A stretch of 53,600 nt of DNA from Candidatus Methanomethylicia archaeon (GTDB lineage Archaea; Thermoproteota; Methanomethylicia; Nezhaarchaeales; B40-G2): contig JAPDJI010000019.1 of NCBI GenBank assembly GCA_029259155.1, positions 1-53,600 of the forward strand, written 5' to 3'. Each line of letters starts with the position of its first letter. Within the stretch, counting starts at the first letter, position 1. Shown here piece by piece: positions 4,318 to 50,653 of the stretch. Under the pieces are notes generated by a model. The model was not told the DNA's origin. It was given only the letters and a program-made list of their open reading frames with translations, and made no database searches. A program made the position numbers and the translations under genes.

Positions 4318-5607
4318 GTGAAGGTGACTATTACGCCGACGGTATACCTTGAAACCTACGGTTGCTGGCTCAATCAAGGCGACTCAGAGATAATGCTGGC
4401 TCTCCTCGAAGACATAGGCTTTACAAAGGTGAAGGCTCCTGAGCAAGCCGACCTCATACTTGTCAACACCTGTGCGGTTAGAGGCGAAACAGAACGTAAA
4501 ATCTTGAGAAGGCTCAAGGCTTTAGACGCTATACGTAAACCTGGCTCGAAGCTCATAGTTGCTGGATGCTTAGCTACCTATAGGCCGGCTCTGATTGCCT
4601 CAACAGCTCCTTCAGCTAGTCTACTCTCCACTTTCTCCGTCGAAAAGGTGGTTGAGGTCACCCTCACGCCGGGGAGGTTGGCAGTTTTAGATAAGGGTCC
4701 TAGGAGGTACCTGCGCCTCCCGAGGTTTAAGGGAGGTAGAAGGTGTGTAGTCCCCATAGCTGTAGGGTGTTTAGGTAGCTGTGCTTACTGCGTCATGCCG
4801 CTGTCTAGAGGACCGCTACGGAGCTATCCTCCAAGCGAAGTGTTGAGGTATGTTAAGGAGGCGGTGGAGGCTGGGGCGAGGGAGGTCTACCTAGTGGCTC
4901 AAGACGCTGCTGCTTATGGACGAGACATAGGATACTCTCTTCCAAACCTCCTCCGCGACATATGTAAAGTGGAGGGAGAGTTTATGGTGAGGGTCGGCAT
5001 GATGGAGCCTTCCACCACGCTTAAGGTACTTCAACCGCTCCTCGAAGCCTTTAGCGATGATAAGGTTTACAAGTTTCTCCACTGTCCCGTGCAGTCTGGG
5101 AGCGATAAGGTGTTGGAACTGATGAATAGAAGGTATAACGTGGACGTTTTCCTGTCCATTGTGGAGGCTTATCGCTCAAGTTTCCCTGATGGAAGCTTGG
5201 CTACCGACATCATGGTAGGGCTGCCGGGCGAGGAGGAGGCGGACTTTAAACAGACCTGTGAGCTACTTAAGAGGATAGAGCCGGATAAAGTACACATAGC
5301 CCGTTTCACCCCCAGACCACTTACGCCAGCTGCCTCCATGCCTCATCCACCCGACTGGGTTAAGAAGGAGAGGTCTAGGAGGCTCACCCTCCTTGTTGAT
5401 GAGCTTACTCTCCAACGTAATAGGCGCTGGCTAGGCAGAGAGGTGAAGGTTCTCGTTACGGGCGAGGTTAAGGAAGGTTCTCTCATGGGGAGAACCTATA
5501 CCTATAAACCTGTTGTCTTGCCTAAGCAGCCAGGCTTAGCTTGGAGATGGGTCAATGCATCGATCACCGAGGCCCACCCATACTACCTTAAAGCCACCTT
5601 ACTTTAA
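4318..5607 (+). CDS. mtaB: tRNA t6A37 methylthiotransferase (archaeal MtaB/CDKAL1 type); start codon uncertain
   Basis: ETYGC...NTCAV...GCLA UPF0004 domain, CLGSCAYC radical SAM motif, C-terminal TRAM-like domain. Confidence 0.88.
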   Translation: MKVTITPTVYLETYGCWLNQGDSEIMLALLEDIGFTKVKAPEQADLILVNTCAVRGETERKILRRLKALDAIRKPGSKLIVAGCLATYRPALIASTAPSASLLSTFSVEKVVEVTLTPGRLAVLDKGPRRYLRLPRFKGGRRCVVPIAVGCLGSCAYCVMPLSRGPLRSYPPSEVLRYVKEAVEAGAREVYLVAQDAAAYGRDIGYSLPNLLRDICKVEGEFMVRVGMMEPSTTLKVLQPLLEAFSDDKVYKFLHCPVQSGSDKVLELMNRRYNVDVFLSIVEAYRSSFPDGSLATDIMVGLPGEEEADFKQTCELLKRIEPDKVHIARFTPRPLTPAASMPHPPDWVKKERSRRLTLLVDELTLQRNRRWLGREVKVLVTGEVKEGSLMGRTYTYKPVVLPKQPGLAWRWVNASITEAHPYYLKATLL

Positions 5608-10573: not shown

Positions 10574-10670
10574 GCGGCCGTGGTCTAGCCTGGTCTAGGA
10601 CTCGGGCCTTCCACGCCCGCTAAGAGCCTAAAGCTCTCGGGAAACCCGGGTTCAAATCCCGGCGGCCGCA
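10574..10670 (+). tRNA. tRNA-Gly(TCC) with non-canonical intron at about 45/46 (10622-10643, 22 nt)
   Basis: GCGGCCG acceptor, CGGGC-CT-TCC-AC-GCCCG; insert folds CCCG-CT|A-AGAGC-loop-GCTCT-CGGG-AA|A. Confidence 0.92.
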
Positions 10671-14358: not shown

Positions 14359-14757
14359 TTGAGTGGTGATGAAAAAACGGCCGAGTTAAAGAGGATATAT
14401 AAATGTGATGTTTGCGGAAATATCGTTGAGGTGTTGCACAGCGGTGTCGGTCAACTGGTTTGTTGCGGCCAACCCATGCGCTTAGTGGCAGAGGTAGAGG
14501 AAGGTTCCGCTGCGGAGAAACATGTCCCCATAGTGGACTATGGCGAGAAGATTACGGTTAAAGTGGGAAGCGTACCTCATCCCATGGAAGAGAAGCATTA
14601 CATTGAGTGGATTGCGGTCGAAACAGATGATGCTACATACAGGAAATACTTGCAGCCTGGCGCCAAGCCTGAAGCCCAATTTGAGTTAAAAGCGGATAAA
14701 GTACTTATTAAAGCGTACTGCAACATACATGGTCTATGGGTAAGGGGGAGGCTATAG
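14359..14757 (+). CDS. dfx: Desulfoferrodoxin (class I superoxide reductase); start may be ACG at 14377
   Basis: YKCDVCGN...[33 protein letters not shown]. Confidence 0.95.
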
Positions 14758-25998: not shown

Positions 25999-26105
25999 GC
26001 CGGGGTCGCCTAGCTGGCCTAGGGCGCCAGACTCATAGTCAGACGTTGAGGCCAGGCGCCTGAGGGGGTATCTGGTCATCGCGGGTTCGAATCCCGCCCC
26101 CGGCA
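25999..26105 (+). tRNA. tRNA-Met(CAT), elongator type, canonical 37/38 intron (26038-26069, 32 nt)
   Basis: GCCGGGG acceptor, CCAGA-CT-CAT-A|intron|A-TCTGG. Confidence 0.92.
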
Positions 26106-37097: not shown

Positions 37098-38972
37098 TTA
37101 GGCTTTACGCTTAAAGATCGAAACTACAGCAACAAGTAAGGCTATTATAGCTATGGCTAAACCGGCCATGCCCAGGTTCATCGCCGTGTTCATAGTGCCT
37201 CTAATGGCTGCAAGTTCTTCCTCGACCTGCTCCACGGCGCTGACAGCAGATTGTAGCTCCTCACCCGTAACTTCCAGCGACATTATTTTAGCAGGGTTTC
37301 TAGCAAAGTACTTGGGGTTCCAGACTAAGTGAATGTATTCGCCAGGTCTCCATTCCTTAAATATGAAAGGCCCTGTCCCGATCAGTTTAGTGAGTCCGGA
37401 TACTGTGGGGTGCTCCTCTTCCCAAGGTCTTGCTGCAGTTGGGTCGTCGTAATTCTCCCATATATGCTTTGGCAATATGTAAATAGCGCCTGGCCACCTG
37501 TAAGCTATGTAGCTCTTTACGTCAAAGTAACATATGACCGTGTACGGGTCTGGTGTTTCAACGTTGACTATGTGCTCAACGTAGGACAGCCAGTAGGGTG
37601 ACCATTCCTTATATAACTCTATGGTGAACTTGACGTCCTCCGACGTAAGTGGGACTCCATCCTGCCATAATACATCGTTCCTTAACTTGTAGGTAACTAT
37701 TGTTCCGTCCTCTGTGAATTCTACGGTCCAACTCTCAGCTAGCCAAGGAATATCGTGTTGTAGGTCATATGGATCTACAGCGATTAATGTATCAAAGACC
37801 TTATTCAACACTTCATGGTCCCAATACCATTGAGCTGTGACTGGGTTTAGAGTCTCAACGTCGCTCTTAAATCCGTAGTTAATCGTGCCTCCTAAAGGCT
37901 CGCCTTCTCTATATACGTTTAGAAATGTCCAGACGTTGTTTACTCCTTGTCCCACCATGTTTATGACTCCCCTGAGGTCTGCACGGTAAGCCTTAACGCC
38001 TGCCGTTGACCATAGAGGTATCATCGGTACCTGCTCCATGAATATCTCCTGGGCTCTCCAGGCAGCTTCCTTAAACTCCTCGAAGTTGGAGCTGTTATAC
38101 TTCATCTGATATGCCCAATAATCGAACTCTGAATTATTGAATCCGATGTAGTTTAAGCTCCAAGGCTCAGGGTATACGTCGATATAGCTGGTGTATAGGT
38201 CGTATAGGTAAGTACCATCCCTGTCTAGTATCCAGCCTCCGGTGTATATGTCGTAGTCATACTCTGTCATTACCTTCTCGTAGGCAATGGTTCTATCCAC
38301 AACTTGCTCATCGACAGGTATACCTATGTTTTCGAGCTCCTCGACGAGCATTAAGCCGGCCTGGCTTCTTAGCGGGTCATCAGCCCTTATGATGAAGACC
38401 AGCGGTCTTAAAGTTTCGCCAGTCTGCGGATCAATTCTCCAGCCGTCAGGCCCCATAACGAAGCCTGCCTCGTCTAGCAATTGAGCTGCCAACTCAGGGT
38501 CATATTCATATTTAGGTACATTCGGGTTGTATAGATCGCCCCACTGAGGCCCTATGATGGAGTCCAGCACCATGCCATATCCTTTCACTACCTCGGTCAC
38601 TATCCTGTCCTTATCAACTAGATGAGCTATAGCTTTTCTAAAGTTTAGGTTACTCATCGGCCAGCGCCTGTTATTGAAGTCAAACTCAAACATGCCCAGC
38701 TCAGTGTACTCGGCCAACACTATGTCGGGATTATCCATAAACTCCTCGATTTTAGCTGATGTCAGAGGCCAGTCGATGATATCTATCTCGCCCGCCTCTA
38801 ATGCCATGAACTCCGGCTCTGGTGATAGGTAGATCTTAATTACCAGCTCATCAATGCGAGGACCTGTAGTGTCAAAGTTTTCCTGCGCCTCTGTGGTTGA
38901 AGGTGCAGCGGCTACAATTATGGAGAGCAATAGGATGGTTACTATAGTTAGTGTTAGTGCAATTCTTTTCAT
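37098..38972 (-). CDS. oppA: Family-5 peptide-binding protein, circularly permuted, C-terminal TM anchor
   Basis: FRKAIAHLVDK early; TLNP, PWLAESW, WQDGVPLTSEDVKFT and IGTGPF late. Confidence 0.85.
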   Translation of the reverse strand: MKRIALTLTIVTILLLSIIVAAAPSTTEAQENFDTTGPRIDELVIKIYLSPEPEFMALEAGEIDIIDWPLTSAKIEEFMDNPDIVLAEYTELGMFEFDFNNRRWPMSNLNFRKAIAHLVDKDRIVTEVVKGYGMVLDSIIGPQWGDLYNPNVPKYEYDPELAAQLLDEAGFVMGPDGWRIDPQTGETLRPLVFIIRADDPLRSQAGLMLVEELENIGIPVDEQVVDRTIAYEKVMTEYDYDIYTGGWILDRDGTYLYDLYTSYIDVYPEPWSLNYIGFNNSEFDYWAYQMKYNSSNFEEFKEAAWRAQEIFMEQVPMIPLWSTAGVKAYRADLRGVINMVGQGVNNVWTFLNVYREGEPLGGTINYGFKSDVETLNPVTAQWYWDHEVLNKVFDTLIAVDPYDLQHDIPWLAESWTVEFTEDGTIVTYKLRNDVLWQDGVPLTSEDVKFTIELYKEWSPYWLSYVEHIVNVETPDPYTVICYFDVKSYIAYRWPGAIYILPKHIWENYDDPTAARPWEEEHPTVSGLTKLIGTGPFIFKEWRPGEYIHLVWNPKYFARNPAKIMSLEVTGEELQSAVSAVEQVEEELAAIRGTMNTAMNLGMAGLAIAIIALLVAVVSIFKRKA

Positions 38973-41178: not shown

Positions 41179-41280
41179 GGGCCCGTAGCTCAGCATGGTA
41201 GAGCAACGGGCTTTTAACCCGGAAGGGGGGCCATTAGCCCTCCTGGGGAGTGGTCGCGGGTTCAAATCCCGCCGGGCCCG
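41179..41280 (+). tRNA. tRNA-Lys(TTT) with non-canonical intron at about 43/44 (41223-41250, 28 nt)
   Basis: GGGCCCG acceptor, CT-TTT-AA loop; insert folds ACCC-GG|A-AGGGGGGC-loop-GCCCTCCT-GGGG-AG|T; exact junction less certain. Confidence 0.88.
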
Positions 41281-41395
41281 CTTTTACTTATTACATGAGG
41301 CCGTCGCTGATGCTAGTAAAGTTTATAAGAGCTACCTTGTGGCTTCTACTGCGAGCTCTTTGGTGATGGTGTGGCGGGTTTTAGAGGTGTTTGGT

Positions 41396-41635
41396 TTGGT
41401 TAGGAAACTCGATCTACTTAATCATGAGCTTGTTCCTAAACATGAGGTTTTATCGGCTGAGGAGAAGCGTAAGGTTTTGAAGGAGTTAGGTATCCGTGCC
41501 GAGATGCTTCCTTGGATTAGAAGTAGTGATCCTATTGCTAGGATTATTGGAGCTAAGCCTGGAGATGTAGTGAAGATTACTAGGCATAGTAAGACTGCTG
41601 GTGTGTTCGTGGCGTATCGCTTCGTGGTGCCTTGA
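41396..41635 (+). CDS. rpoH: RNA polymerase subunit Rpo5 (H); the ORF-track start at 41195 wrongly runs through the tRNA
   Basis: [34 protein letters not shown]; GAGGTG SD before TTG 41396. Confidence 0.95.
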
Positions 41636-48837: not shown

Positions 48838-49148
48838 TAAGCCTGGAGAATGAGCTCAAAGTCGCGATGAAGACTGGGAAGGTAATCTTAGGTAGCCGAG
48901 AGACCCTTAGAACCGTGGCTCATGGTAGAGGTAGACTTATTATCTTGGCGCGCAACTGCCCTCCAGACATGAAGGACCTGATAGTACATCACGCGAAACT
49001 CTCAAATATACCGACCTATGTCTGCCCTCTAAGCAGTAAGGAGCTAGGGGAGACCTGCGGGAGACGCTTTATGGTAGCAGCCCTTACGGTGCTAGATGAA
49101 GGTGACTCCGAGATAATGAAACTGGTTGAAGAGCAGGAGGTAGGGTAG
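48834..49148 (+). CDS. rpl30e: 50S ribosomal protein L30e
   Basis: [26 protein letters not shown]. Confidence 0.96.
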
Positions 49149-49149
49149 C

Positions 49150-49584
49150 GTGCCTCAGATAAGGCTGTTTAATGAAGAGCTCCGCTACCTAAGCCTCTTC
49201 GAATCCATCACTGGGGCGCAGGCCAAGGACTGCGTAATTGACCAGGAGAGAAGCAGGATTCTCTTTGTGGTTAAGCAGGGCCACATGGGTTTAGCCATAG
49301 GGCGAAATGGATCCAACGTTAAGAGGCTTACAAAGCTAATAGGTAAGAGTGTGGAGGTAGTGGAAGATGCAGACAAACCTGAAGACCTTATAAAGAATAG
49401 CCTACTGCCCGCTAAGGTCCACTCCGTCAAGATAATTAAATCTCCTGACGGCAAGACCGTAGCCTTCGTGACCGTTAACCCTCAAGAAAAAGGAGTAGCC
49501 ATCGGCAGGGATGGAAACAAAATCCTGAGAGCCAGGATTTTAGCTAAGAGATACTTCGATATAGATAACGTCGTCATTAACTAA
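49150..49584 (+). CDS. nusA: Archaeal NusA (two KH domains)
   Basis: GLAIGRNGSNV, GVAIGRDGNKI. Confidence 0.96.
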   Translation: MPQIRLFNEELRYLSLFESITGAQAKDCVIDQERSRILFVVKQGHMGLAIGRNGSNVKRLTKLIGKSVEVVEDADKPEDLIKNSLLPAKVHSVKIIKSPDGKTVAFVTVNPQEKGVAIGRDGNKILRARILAKRYFDIDNVVIN

Positions 49585-49636
49585 GACCGAAATAGTTTTA
49601 TTCGCGCCCCCTGTAGGGAAGCGAAGGTGATGGGTT

Positions 49637-50074
49637 ACGGGTAAGTCTCCTCGAGGCCTCTTCGCTGCGAGGAAGCTTATGGCTAAAAGGCAGAAGTTCA
49701 GGTGGAGTCAGAGCAGCTATAAGAGGAGAATGTTACGCCTAGACGTGAAAGTTGACCCCCTCGAAGGAGCCCCTATGGCTAGAGGCCTCGTCTTAGAGAA
49801 GGTCGGTATTGAGAGTAGACAGCCCAACTCGGCTGTGAGGAAGTGCGTGAGGGTTCAACTTATTAAAAATGGTAAGCAGGTAACTGCTTTTGTCCCGGGT
49901 GACGGAGCTCTAAACTTCATCGATGAGCACGACGAAGTGTTGATAGAGAGGATAGGGGGGCCTCAAGGAAAGGCTTATGGAGACCTACCTGGAGTGAGGT
50001 TTAAGGTTGTATCGGTTAATGGTGTTTCACTTAGGGCTTTGATGTCTGGGAAGAAGACTAAACCCTTAAGATGA
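49637..50074 (+). CDS. rps12: 30S ribosomal protein S12 (uS12); conserved N-terminus starts at a non-canonical ACG codon
   Basis: (ACG)[13 protein letters not shown] precedes the ORF-track ATG 49679; [25 protein letters not shown]. Confidence 0.95.
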
Positions 50075-50077
50075 GCG

Positions 50078-50653
50078 GTGGCGGTTTTGGTGGAGGTGAA
50101 GCTTTTCAATAAATGGTCTATGGAGGGCGTCGAGGTACATGATCCAGGTTTACGCAGATATATCTGCTTAAAGCCTGTCTTTCTTCCTCATACTGAAGGT
50201 AGACATGAACATAAAAGGTTTGGGAAGGCTGAGGTACCTATCGTTGAGAGGCTCATAAACCACTTGATGAAGGTCGGGAAGAACCAAGGCAAGAAACAGC
50301 TAGCTACTAGCATAGTTAAACAGGCTTTTGGGATTATAAGTTTAAAGACCAAGCAGAACCCCGTTCAAGTACTAATTAACGCCATAGAAAATGCGGCTCC
50401 GCGAGAGGAGACCACCCGTATAGCTTACGGAGGCATAGTTTACCACCAGTCGGTTGATGTAGCCCCTCAACGCAGGGTAGATCTAGCTTTAAGGTGGATT
50501 ACCGAAGGGGCTAGGATAGCTTCTTTCGGTAGCCCTAAAAGTATTGAGGAGTGTCTTGCTGAAGAGATAATGCTGGCAGCTGAGGGGAGCTCGAGGAGCT
50601 ACGCGATTAGCCGGAAGGATGAGATGGAAAGAATAGCTATGGCCTCTAGGTGA
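50078..50653 (+). CDS. rps7: 30S ribosomal protein S7
   Basis: [28 protein letters not shown]. Confidence 0.97.

Follow-up and report, generated by a model that had tools for sequence, protein, structure and literature searches.

Where does translation of the ribosomal protein uS12 (rps12) begin in a gene whose reading frame offers no ordinary start codon ahead of its conserved N-terminus? The gene lies in a 53,600-nucleotide stretch of archaeal DNA (the window), which is contig C11 of assembly G000 (1.55 Mb, 47 contigs, 94% complete). Its frame reads TGA (49628) TGG GTT ACG (49637) GGT AAG TCT CCT CGA GGC CTC TTC GCT GCG AGG AAG CTT ATG (49679). We re-read this frame and confirmed the observation of the initial annotation that the conserved segment is not preceded by a canonical start: there is no ATG, GTG or TTG between TGA 49628 and ATG 49679. 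Only three sense codons, TGG, GTT and ACG, lead from the in-frame TGA to the conserved segment, and ACG is the sole single-mismatch neighbor of AUG among them. We therefore examined ACG (49637..49639, + strand) as the proposed initiation codon of a uS12 coding sequence of 145 codons plus stop (49637..50074, + strand).

The identity of the gene is clear. A profile search gave 257.7 bits against NF003254 (cut-off 196), aligning residues 3–145 counted from the ACG to positions 4–146 of the 146-position profile, and 251.5 bits against TIGR00982 (cut-off 140.2), with the alignment beginning at residue 7 by the same count. The protein thus scores above the curated cut-offs for uS12 of the archaeal/eukaryotic type over its full length. 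A single S12 match is found in G000, and the gene order is RNA-polymerase-subunit-like, L30e-like, NusA-like, S12, S7-like and EF-1alpha-like frames, where the neighbors of S12 are named from their translations and not by family search. The gene is single-copy and sits in a conserved operon context.

Next, we considered the ribosome-binding site. The 3′ end of the G000 16S rRNA is ...GGATCACCTCCT, from which we derived the Shine-Dalgarno (SD) consensus AGGAGGTGATCC. The motif AGGTGAT at 49625..49631 (+ strand) is complementary to the 16S 3′ end, with a longest contiguous match of 7 nt, or 8 of 9 positions if GAAGGTGAT from 49623 is counted. It contains the GGTGA (49626–49630) that had been noted 6 nt ahead of ACG 49637, and that spacing is correct. 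The ACG falls at consensus offset 15, within the range of 13–16 where most SD-led ATG and TTG starts lie. In a tally of 6-mer SD matches, in which offset 8 itself was not tabulated, 62 first-in-frame ATGs lie at offsets 13–16 vs 13 at offsets 9–12. Thus, uS12 has an SD complementary to the 16S rRNA of G000 itself, at the spacing used for canonical starts. Another frame at this 5′ end holds GTG 49627 and ATG 49630, at consensus offsets 5 and 8 respectively, both inside the SD. The ATG opens an out-of-frame mini-ORF, ATG GGT TAC GGG TAA (49630..49644, + strand), which is absent from the closest genome, G001, and which we judge to be incidental.

We compared S12 5′ ends across 29 relatives. G001 belongs to the same family as G000 and to another genus, and its S12 shares 93% protein identity with that of the window. 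The 13 codons from GGT to CTT (49640..49678, + strand), which precede the first canonical start, differ from G001 at nine nucleotides, of which nine are synonymous and none non-synonymous. Since all of these differences are silent and the family profile covers the segment, the 13 codons ahead of Met 49679 are translated, and a segment constrained at the protein level requires translation to begin at or before 49640. This bears on the reading in which uS12 starts at Met 49679 (Met 15; 49679..49681, + strand) and lacks its first 14 residues, or in which the gene has been freshly damaged and is decaying. Met 49679 is the first canonical in-frame start and the one that a gene caller would choose. 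However, the substitution pattern in the 13 upstream codons speaks against both truncation and decay, and no SD lies ahead of 49679. Starting there would cost approximately 17 of the 146 NF003254 positions, and the codon is ATA in G001; most of the remaining relatives carry a residue other than Met at this position, with M in G002/L003 only. Also against this reading are the single S12 match in the genome and the recovery of the same sequence from sequencing runs dated 2018 and 2022. These comparisons make a start at Met 49679 unlikely, and we consider truncation or decay together to be very improbable.

The relatives also locate the start. In the sister genus (G002 and G003) S12 reads ATG GGT AAA TCY, a codon-for-codon match to the ACG GGT AAG TCT of the window, and in this alignment ACG 49637 takes the position at which G002 and G003 have their ATG start, making it the positional homolog of that codon. 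In G001 the sequence is AAG GTG GTA AGT ACG GGC AAG TCC, with ACG likewise placed 6 nt behind AGGTG; here an in-frame GTG lies three codons upstream of the ACG, inside the SD, so that ACG is not forced in G001. GTG and ACG span 12 nt in G001, compared with 13 nt in the window. This difference is upstream of the shared ACG, so the frame difference falls in the spacer, as expected if the spacer is untranslated. In the remaining relatives the conserved segment is immediately preceded by ATG or TTG, and a canonical start is present in 28 of the 29, the sequence read for L027 ending before that codon. Similarly, among 80 metagenome S12 loci (67–83% identity) 76 have a canonical start (ATG 58, TTG 13, GTG 5); three of the remaining four were scored as having none through alignment offset only (ATGCCAGGA is visible), and one lies at a contig edge. 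This metagenome search for nearer S12 relatives gave a best match of 83% identity, and none from this family. The comparison of rps12 in sister genomes thus places ATG (G002 and G003) and ACG (G001) at the position of the ACG of the window. We propose, on the basis of this distribution, that the ATG-to-ACG change in S12 predates the split of G000 and G001. Compared across these genomes, ACG 49637 has the features of a putative near-cognate start, with a single-base difference from AUG, no canonical rival, positional homology and constraint downstream.

The initial annotation had also raised a simpler explanation, that one G too many in ATGGGTT reflects an assembly or sequencing error and that the true start is ATG GTT ACG GGT (MVTGKSP). 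Dropping one G does give a clean ATG-led frame, which resembles the M-V-S-T-G-K-S-P of G001. To address this we compared Logan contigs of four public runs over 49000–50300. The contigs of X1 (11.1 kb, depth 11.9) and X3 (10.4 kb, depth 14.1) are identical to the window over the ACG site, with 0 differences and 0 gaps, as is a 404-nt contig of X6 (49574–49977, depth 8.8), while X7 lacks coverage of the site. Among the public runs listed as containing the stretch, none was of RNA. X1, X3 and X6 belong to three studies, dated 2018 and 2022. The assembly may have been built from X1 and X3, and X6 is not flagged as a source of it. A contig comparison hides rare variants, so that the population may be heterogeneous. 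Given identical contigs in three runs, at depths of 8.8–14.1 and with no indel listed, and a 1-nt length difference to G001 upstream of an ACG common to both genomes, we reject the assembly error. In addition, an ATG restored in this way would fall within the SD all the same, and the genome-wide ACG pattern described below requires no errors. An extra G introduced in error has next to no chance of being the explanation.

A second, diverged S12 was seen in X1, matching window positions 49658–49782 with 16 differences and 2 gaps in 125 nt (2.5-kb contig, depth 13.9). It represents a related population, and its 5′ end stops short of the start region.

The mini-ORF raises a further alternative, in which translation starts at ATG 49630 (or GTG 49627) and shifts by +1 at GGG-TAA-G, the tRNA-Gly slipping from GGG to GGU at a slow stop. 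The elements of such a site exist: a codon that can re-pair is followed by a stop (GGG TAA G, 49639–49645) with an SD just upstream, genes for tRNA-Gly(CCC) and tRNA-Gly(UCC) are present, and the product would retain GKSPRGLF. However, a usable upstream initiation site and conservation are both missing. ATG 49630 and GTG 49627 lie inside the SD (offsets 8 and 5), and few SD-led starts have offsets this short; the mini-ORF and the frame change are both absent from G001, which yet carries the same ACG, and the two-frame arrangement is found in 0 of the 29 relatives by their 5′ regions. Moreover, four other ACG genes, introduced below, have no comparable shift site, with no nearby stop in the alternative frame of uL6 and HisA. 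The ABC ATPase among the ACG genes has an out-of-frame ATG before its ACG, and this is also found in G001, where an in-frame ATG directly follows. Reading of the ACG accounts for uS12 and the other genes together, and more simply. Of the frameshift from the MGYG* mini-ORF that had been suggested, the mini-ORF itself therefore stands, whereas its start inside the SD and its absence from G001 make the frameshift a weaker rival, to which we give only a slim chance.

We propose that uS12 is probably translated from ACG 49637 by SD-guided near-cognate initiation. AGGTGAT would pair with the 16S rRNA 3′ end and so position the 30S subunit. This would bring the ACG into the P site, to be read there by the ordinary initiator Met-tRNA, whose anticodon CAU mismatches it at the middle base only. 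The protein would then begin M-G-K-S-P-R-G-L-F, as in the sister genera, and all sequence upstream of the ACG would be non-coding spacer, in which the extra G is harmless. The same tolerance of near-cognate starts behind a strong SD would cover CTG and ATT as well as ACG, as about a dozen other G000 genes suggest. The sequence of the locus, the constraint acting on the 13 codons, the homology of position and the codon enrichment behind the SD are observed; from these we infer that the ribosome starts at the ACG, and with Met.

We then explored whether other genes of G000 share this arrangement. Five genes have ACG 6 nt behind the SD (SD+6): uS12, uL6, HisA, pantoate kinase and an Mrp/Mnh subunit-E-like membrane protein. 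In the gene of a LivG-like ABC ATPase, 8 nt separate AGGAGG from ACG. In this set the next canonical start is 11–40 codons downstream; for the ortholog-checked genes the distance is 14–40 codons, and this start falls inside conserved profile positions. The profiles align from residues 3–13. For the LivG-like ATPase, the next canonical start comes 35 codons on, a few residues from the GPNGSGK motif. Ortholog N-termini were aligned by tblastn on loci from as many as 16 relatives for each gene. At the ACG position uL6 has TTG in G001 and ATG in G002 and G003, and pantoate kinase has ATG in G001, TTG in G003, GTG in G002 and ATG in G004. HisA has ATG in G002 and TTG in G004, and in the other family checked TTG in G006, G007, G008 and G010 and GTG in G014; in G001, TCG stands at SD+6 where G000 has ACG, with TTG three codons on. 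The LivG-like ATPase of G001 reads GAA TGG ATG vs AAA TGG ACG in G000, and G004 has TTG.

Two further cases lie in the window and had been listed by the initial annotation beside uS12. In dfx (14365..14379, + strand) GGTGA is followed by a 7-nt spacer and ACG 14377, and all five orthologs place ATG, TTG or GTG precisely where the ACG stands. In the mtaB-like methylthiotransferase gene (4323..4335, + strand) GGTGA is followed by a 5-nt spacer and ACG 4333; the TTG of G001 aligns with this ACG, and the other orthologs start one or two codons from its position. The SD-plus-ACG arrangement is thus real in both genes, but upstream in-frame starts had gone unmentioned and the ACG is not strictly needed in either: dfx has the alternative TTG 14359, which lacks an SD, and the mtaB-like gene has GTG 4318 and GTG 4324, the latter inside the SD. 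Altogether, the ACG aligns with a canonical start of orthologs in seven genes, S12, dfx, the mtaB-like gene and four outside the window. The comparison with G001 gave further candidates (HdrA-like, ThiD-like, UPF0179-like, one on C16 and one on C8), bringing the ACG-start candidates in G000 to approximately 13, of which these seven were checked against orthologs. Judged by their sequences, about a dozen other G000 genes also seem to use near-cognate starts behind a strong SD.

A polymerase-like frame may be mentioned alongside these genes. G000:C30:6640-8088 (− strand) is a 482-codon frame that resembles the C-terminal part of a family-B DNA polymerase, a name given from its translation alone. 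It has ACG behind AGGAGGT and no canonical start for 16 codons, and may be a split polB or a frameshift.

The initial annotation had called for a genome-wide count of SD-led ACG codons at ortholog Met1 positions. We counted the codons behind the SD across the genome. GGTGA itself contains TGA, so frames that open behind it form a clean sample. We collected 71 ORFs, each 100 codons or longer, that open behind the TGA of GGTGA and have no stop or canonical start in the next two codons. At SD+6 these have TTG 15 times, ATG 10, GTG 5, ACG 5, CTG 3 and ATT 3, with all other codons at two or fewer. Among the 41 non-canonical cases ACG was seen five times vs 0.55 expected (binomial P of 2e-4 uncorrected, ~0.01 corrected for 58 codons). 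The codons ACA (0), ACC (0), ACT (1), TCG (0) and GCG (1) are rare, and AAG, AGG, ATA and ATC show no enrichment. Among the non-canonical codons, ACG alone is clearly enriched at SD+6. The initial annotation had held that ATG in sister genomes together with a lack of ACG enrichment would count against ACG; G002 and G003 do have ATG, yet the ACG is shared with G001 and is enriched at SD+6.

Other counts gave no such signal. The raw pattern GGTGA-N6-ACG, taken without ORF context, occurs 52 times, a ratio of 1.18 and no enrichment. With any 5-mer SD at offsets 14–16, 4.4% of pre-start ACGs have an SD, compared with 2.5–4.5% for many codons, and there is no clear excess; the looser SD tests (5-mers at offsets 14–16, 6-mers at offsets 13–17) are noisy, as they include antisense shadow ORFs and codons adjoining the true start. 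In G001 the GGTGA+6 position has no ACG among the 30 non-canonical cases of 50 ORFs, and ATT three times. We also compared the stop-to-stop ORFs of G000 with 1.06 Mb of G001 by reciprocal best hits, without contig-edge pairs and without ORFs that a longer ORF overlaps by more than 35%. This gave 934 pairs at ≥35% identity, 477 of which have a canonical start in common on the same diagonal. Of 228 SD-led canonical starts of G001, 4 align with an ACG in G000, not above TTA, AGG or GAG (5 each), and two of these four ACGs have TTG one codon upstream. A strict test for start-less genes, on 914 pairs at ≥40% identity, listed 26 matches for G000 (CTG 5, ACG 3, AAG 3, the rest two or fewer), many of which reflect one-codon alignment slack.

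Several individual CTG and ATT cases were recorded on the way. The start-less ORFs with CTG or ATT at SD+6 (three each) include C15:12017-12592 (+), C1:135388-135705 (−), C5:58873-59334 (−) and C9:1-745 (−) of G000, with others on C4 and C8. A HisB-like gene has CTG at SD+6 and its next canonical start 14 codons on. Lipoate-ligase-like and EcfT-like genes are start-less in G000 and have TTG or ATG at the same position in G001. Conversely, the L10e/uL16 gene of G001 has an ATT start behind GGTGGTGAT where G000 has ATG, and a kinase gene of G001 likewise begins with ATT. The G001 sites with ATT or TCG (L10e/uL16, kinase, HisA) lie on C7 at ~39.7 kb (+), C9 at ~7.4 kb (+) and C14 at ~16.7 kb (+).

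The codon counts also bear on how an ACG would be used. The proposal that this lineage uses ACG-coded starts, whether read directly or edited, is supported by the positional homology, the SD spacing and the enrichment at SD+6. C-to-U editing of the mRNA could convert ACG to AUG before translation, as in plant organelles. All of the evidence for ACG at the start position would fit editing equally well, and editing would remove the problem of ACG efficiency discussed below. In HisA, the TCG of G001 at SD+6, where G000 has ACG and other relatives ATG or TTG, would become UUG. However, editing should also yield UUG and GUG starts: TTG is the commonest start at SD+6 (15 vs 10 ATG), yet TCG is found there 0 times and GCG once, vs five times for ACG. 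Nor can editing repair CTG and ATT, which are also enriched (three each). The observed pattern is thus unlike editing. By contrast, ACG, CTG and ATT are each one mismatch from AUG, the pattern expected if they are read by the ordinary initiator tRNA. A search for a DYW-type deaminase (PF14432) found no match in G000, but also none in 14 control genomes, and the one PF00383 deaminase present in G000 is of the ordinary CMP/dCMP type. Editing of mRNA is not known to occur in archaea. Of the two mechanisms initially put forward, direct near-cognate reading therefore fits better, whereas editing, with no enrichment of TCG or GCG at SD+6, fits less well and seems to us improbable, if somewhat short of negligible.

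Direct reading meets a difficulty of its own. Initiation at ACG reaches 0.1–1% of the AUG level in E. coli, according to bioRxiv 10.1101/063800, and ~0.4–0.5% in yeast CYC7, as given in PMC4705826. Initiation this weak sits uneasily with the abundance of essential proteins such as uS12 and uL6. We inspected the initiator tRNA, tRNA-Thr(CGU) and aIF1 and saw nothing in these three that explains an efficient use of ACG. The sole initiator tRNA (anticodon CAU) has A1:U72, and its anticodon stem contains three G:C pairs. G002 and G005 share the gene at 100% identity and six other genomes at 99%, and in all of these S12 is ATG-started. The tRNA-Thr(CGU) is an ordinary elongator, and aIF1 is present in G000 with a normal ATG start. 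It is conceivable, though we think it unlikely, that this family has made ACG efficient, not leaky, for ~1% of its genes including uS12 and uL6, by means of a dedicated mechanism that would leave no trace in the gene sequences compared. Candidates may be an anticodon modification of the initiator tRNA, a change in how aIF1/aIF2 proofread the start codon, or mRNA editing of the C-to-U kind.

We compared the proposed near-cognate initiation at ACG to known systems. The VP2 protein of AAV and the C′ protein of Sendai virus are examples of near-cognate ACG initiation. As proposed here for uS12, the ACG of these eukaryotic and viral cases is read by the ordinary initiator tRNA, giving Met; it works only in a favorable context, and archaea have eIF1/eIF2-type factors in common with eukaryotes, of which aIF1 is present here. 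In contrast, eukaryotic ACG starts depend on Kozak context and scanning and give alternative N-terminal isoforms, whereas the starts considered here would depend on SD pairing in essential, single-product housekeeping genes. In yeast, ACG is among the stronger non-AUG codons (PMC4705826).

In E. coli, AUU starts are used by infC and pcnB, and initiation from all 64 codons has been measured (available text of bioRxiv 10.1101/063800); as in uS12 here, these rare starts combine an SD-led mRNA with a single-mismatch start codon. A protein expressed from ACG in E. coli carried an N-terminal Met by mass spectrometry (same text), and the part of that report available names no natural ACG-started gene of E. 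coli, vs about a dozen seeming users here. The autoregulation of the infC/IF3 type is a feature of E. coli, with no counterpart shown for the ACG genes here.

Plant organelles create AUG from ACG starts by C-to-U editing. The likeness is that a genomic ACG stands at an ancestral ATG position in a conserved gene of prokaryotic type, rps12-like genes included; a parallel excess of TCG or GCG is absent here. In the programmed +1 frameshift of prfB, CUU UGA C lies behind an internal SD. The uS12 locus is similar in that a short frame lies upstream, that a stop follows a shift-prone codon (GGG UAA G) and that an SD stands a few bases ahead; unlike prfB, its site is not conserved in G001 and its upstream ATG is badly placed for initiation.

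The start codons of NCBI table 11 do not include ACG. In the full-text literature library that we searched, we found no description of a natural ACG start codon in archaea. Archaea permit AUG, GUG and UUG starts, as stated in PMC4705826. The putative ACG starts of G000 would differ from the known cases in being SD-led, in serving archaeal housekeeping and ribosomal-protein genes, and in using a codon outside that table. Gene callers disallow ACG and would leave such essential genes truncated (uS12 by 14 conserved residues), over-extended or missed, and ACG-start genes are easily taken for frameshifts or assembly errors. If near-cognate initiation at ACG holds true, an SD-led archaeal system that works with eukaryote-type factors accepts a mismatch at the middle base of the start codon, even where the protein is essential and abundant. 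The uS12 ACG makes the start-codon stringency of archaea directly testable, and the locus is a compact test case, with a 7-nt SD, a 5-nt spacer and ACG, where sister genomes have ATG in the same place. Should ACG be efficient here, it belongs among the prokaryotic start codons.

Finally, we note some unrelated features of the window. The RpoH ORF (41195–41635, + strand) has 146 codons from its first ATG, and the 80-position RpoH profile matches residues 70–145 only; its true start is probably internal, as suggested by this alignment. In an oligopeptide-binding protein gene (37098–38972, − strand) the halves of the profile are swapped, the C-terminal half matching residues 28–341 and the N-terminal half residues 372–555, and by this profile match the gene is permuted, fused or mis-joined. 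Two intron-bearing tRNA genes, tRNA-Gly(UCC) at 10574–10670 (+ strand) and tRNA-Met(CAU) at 25999–26105 (+ strand), were identified with aragorn in intron mode.
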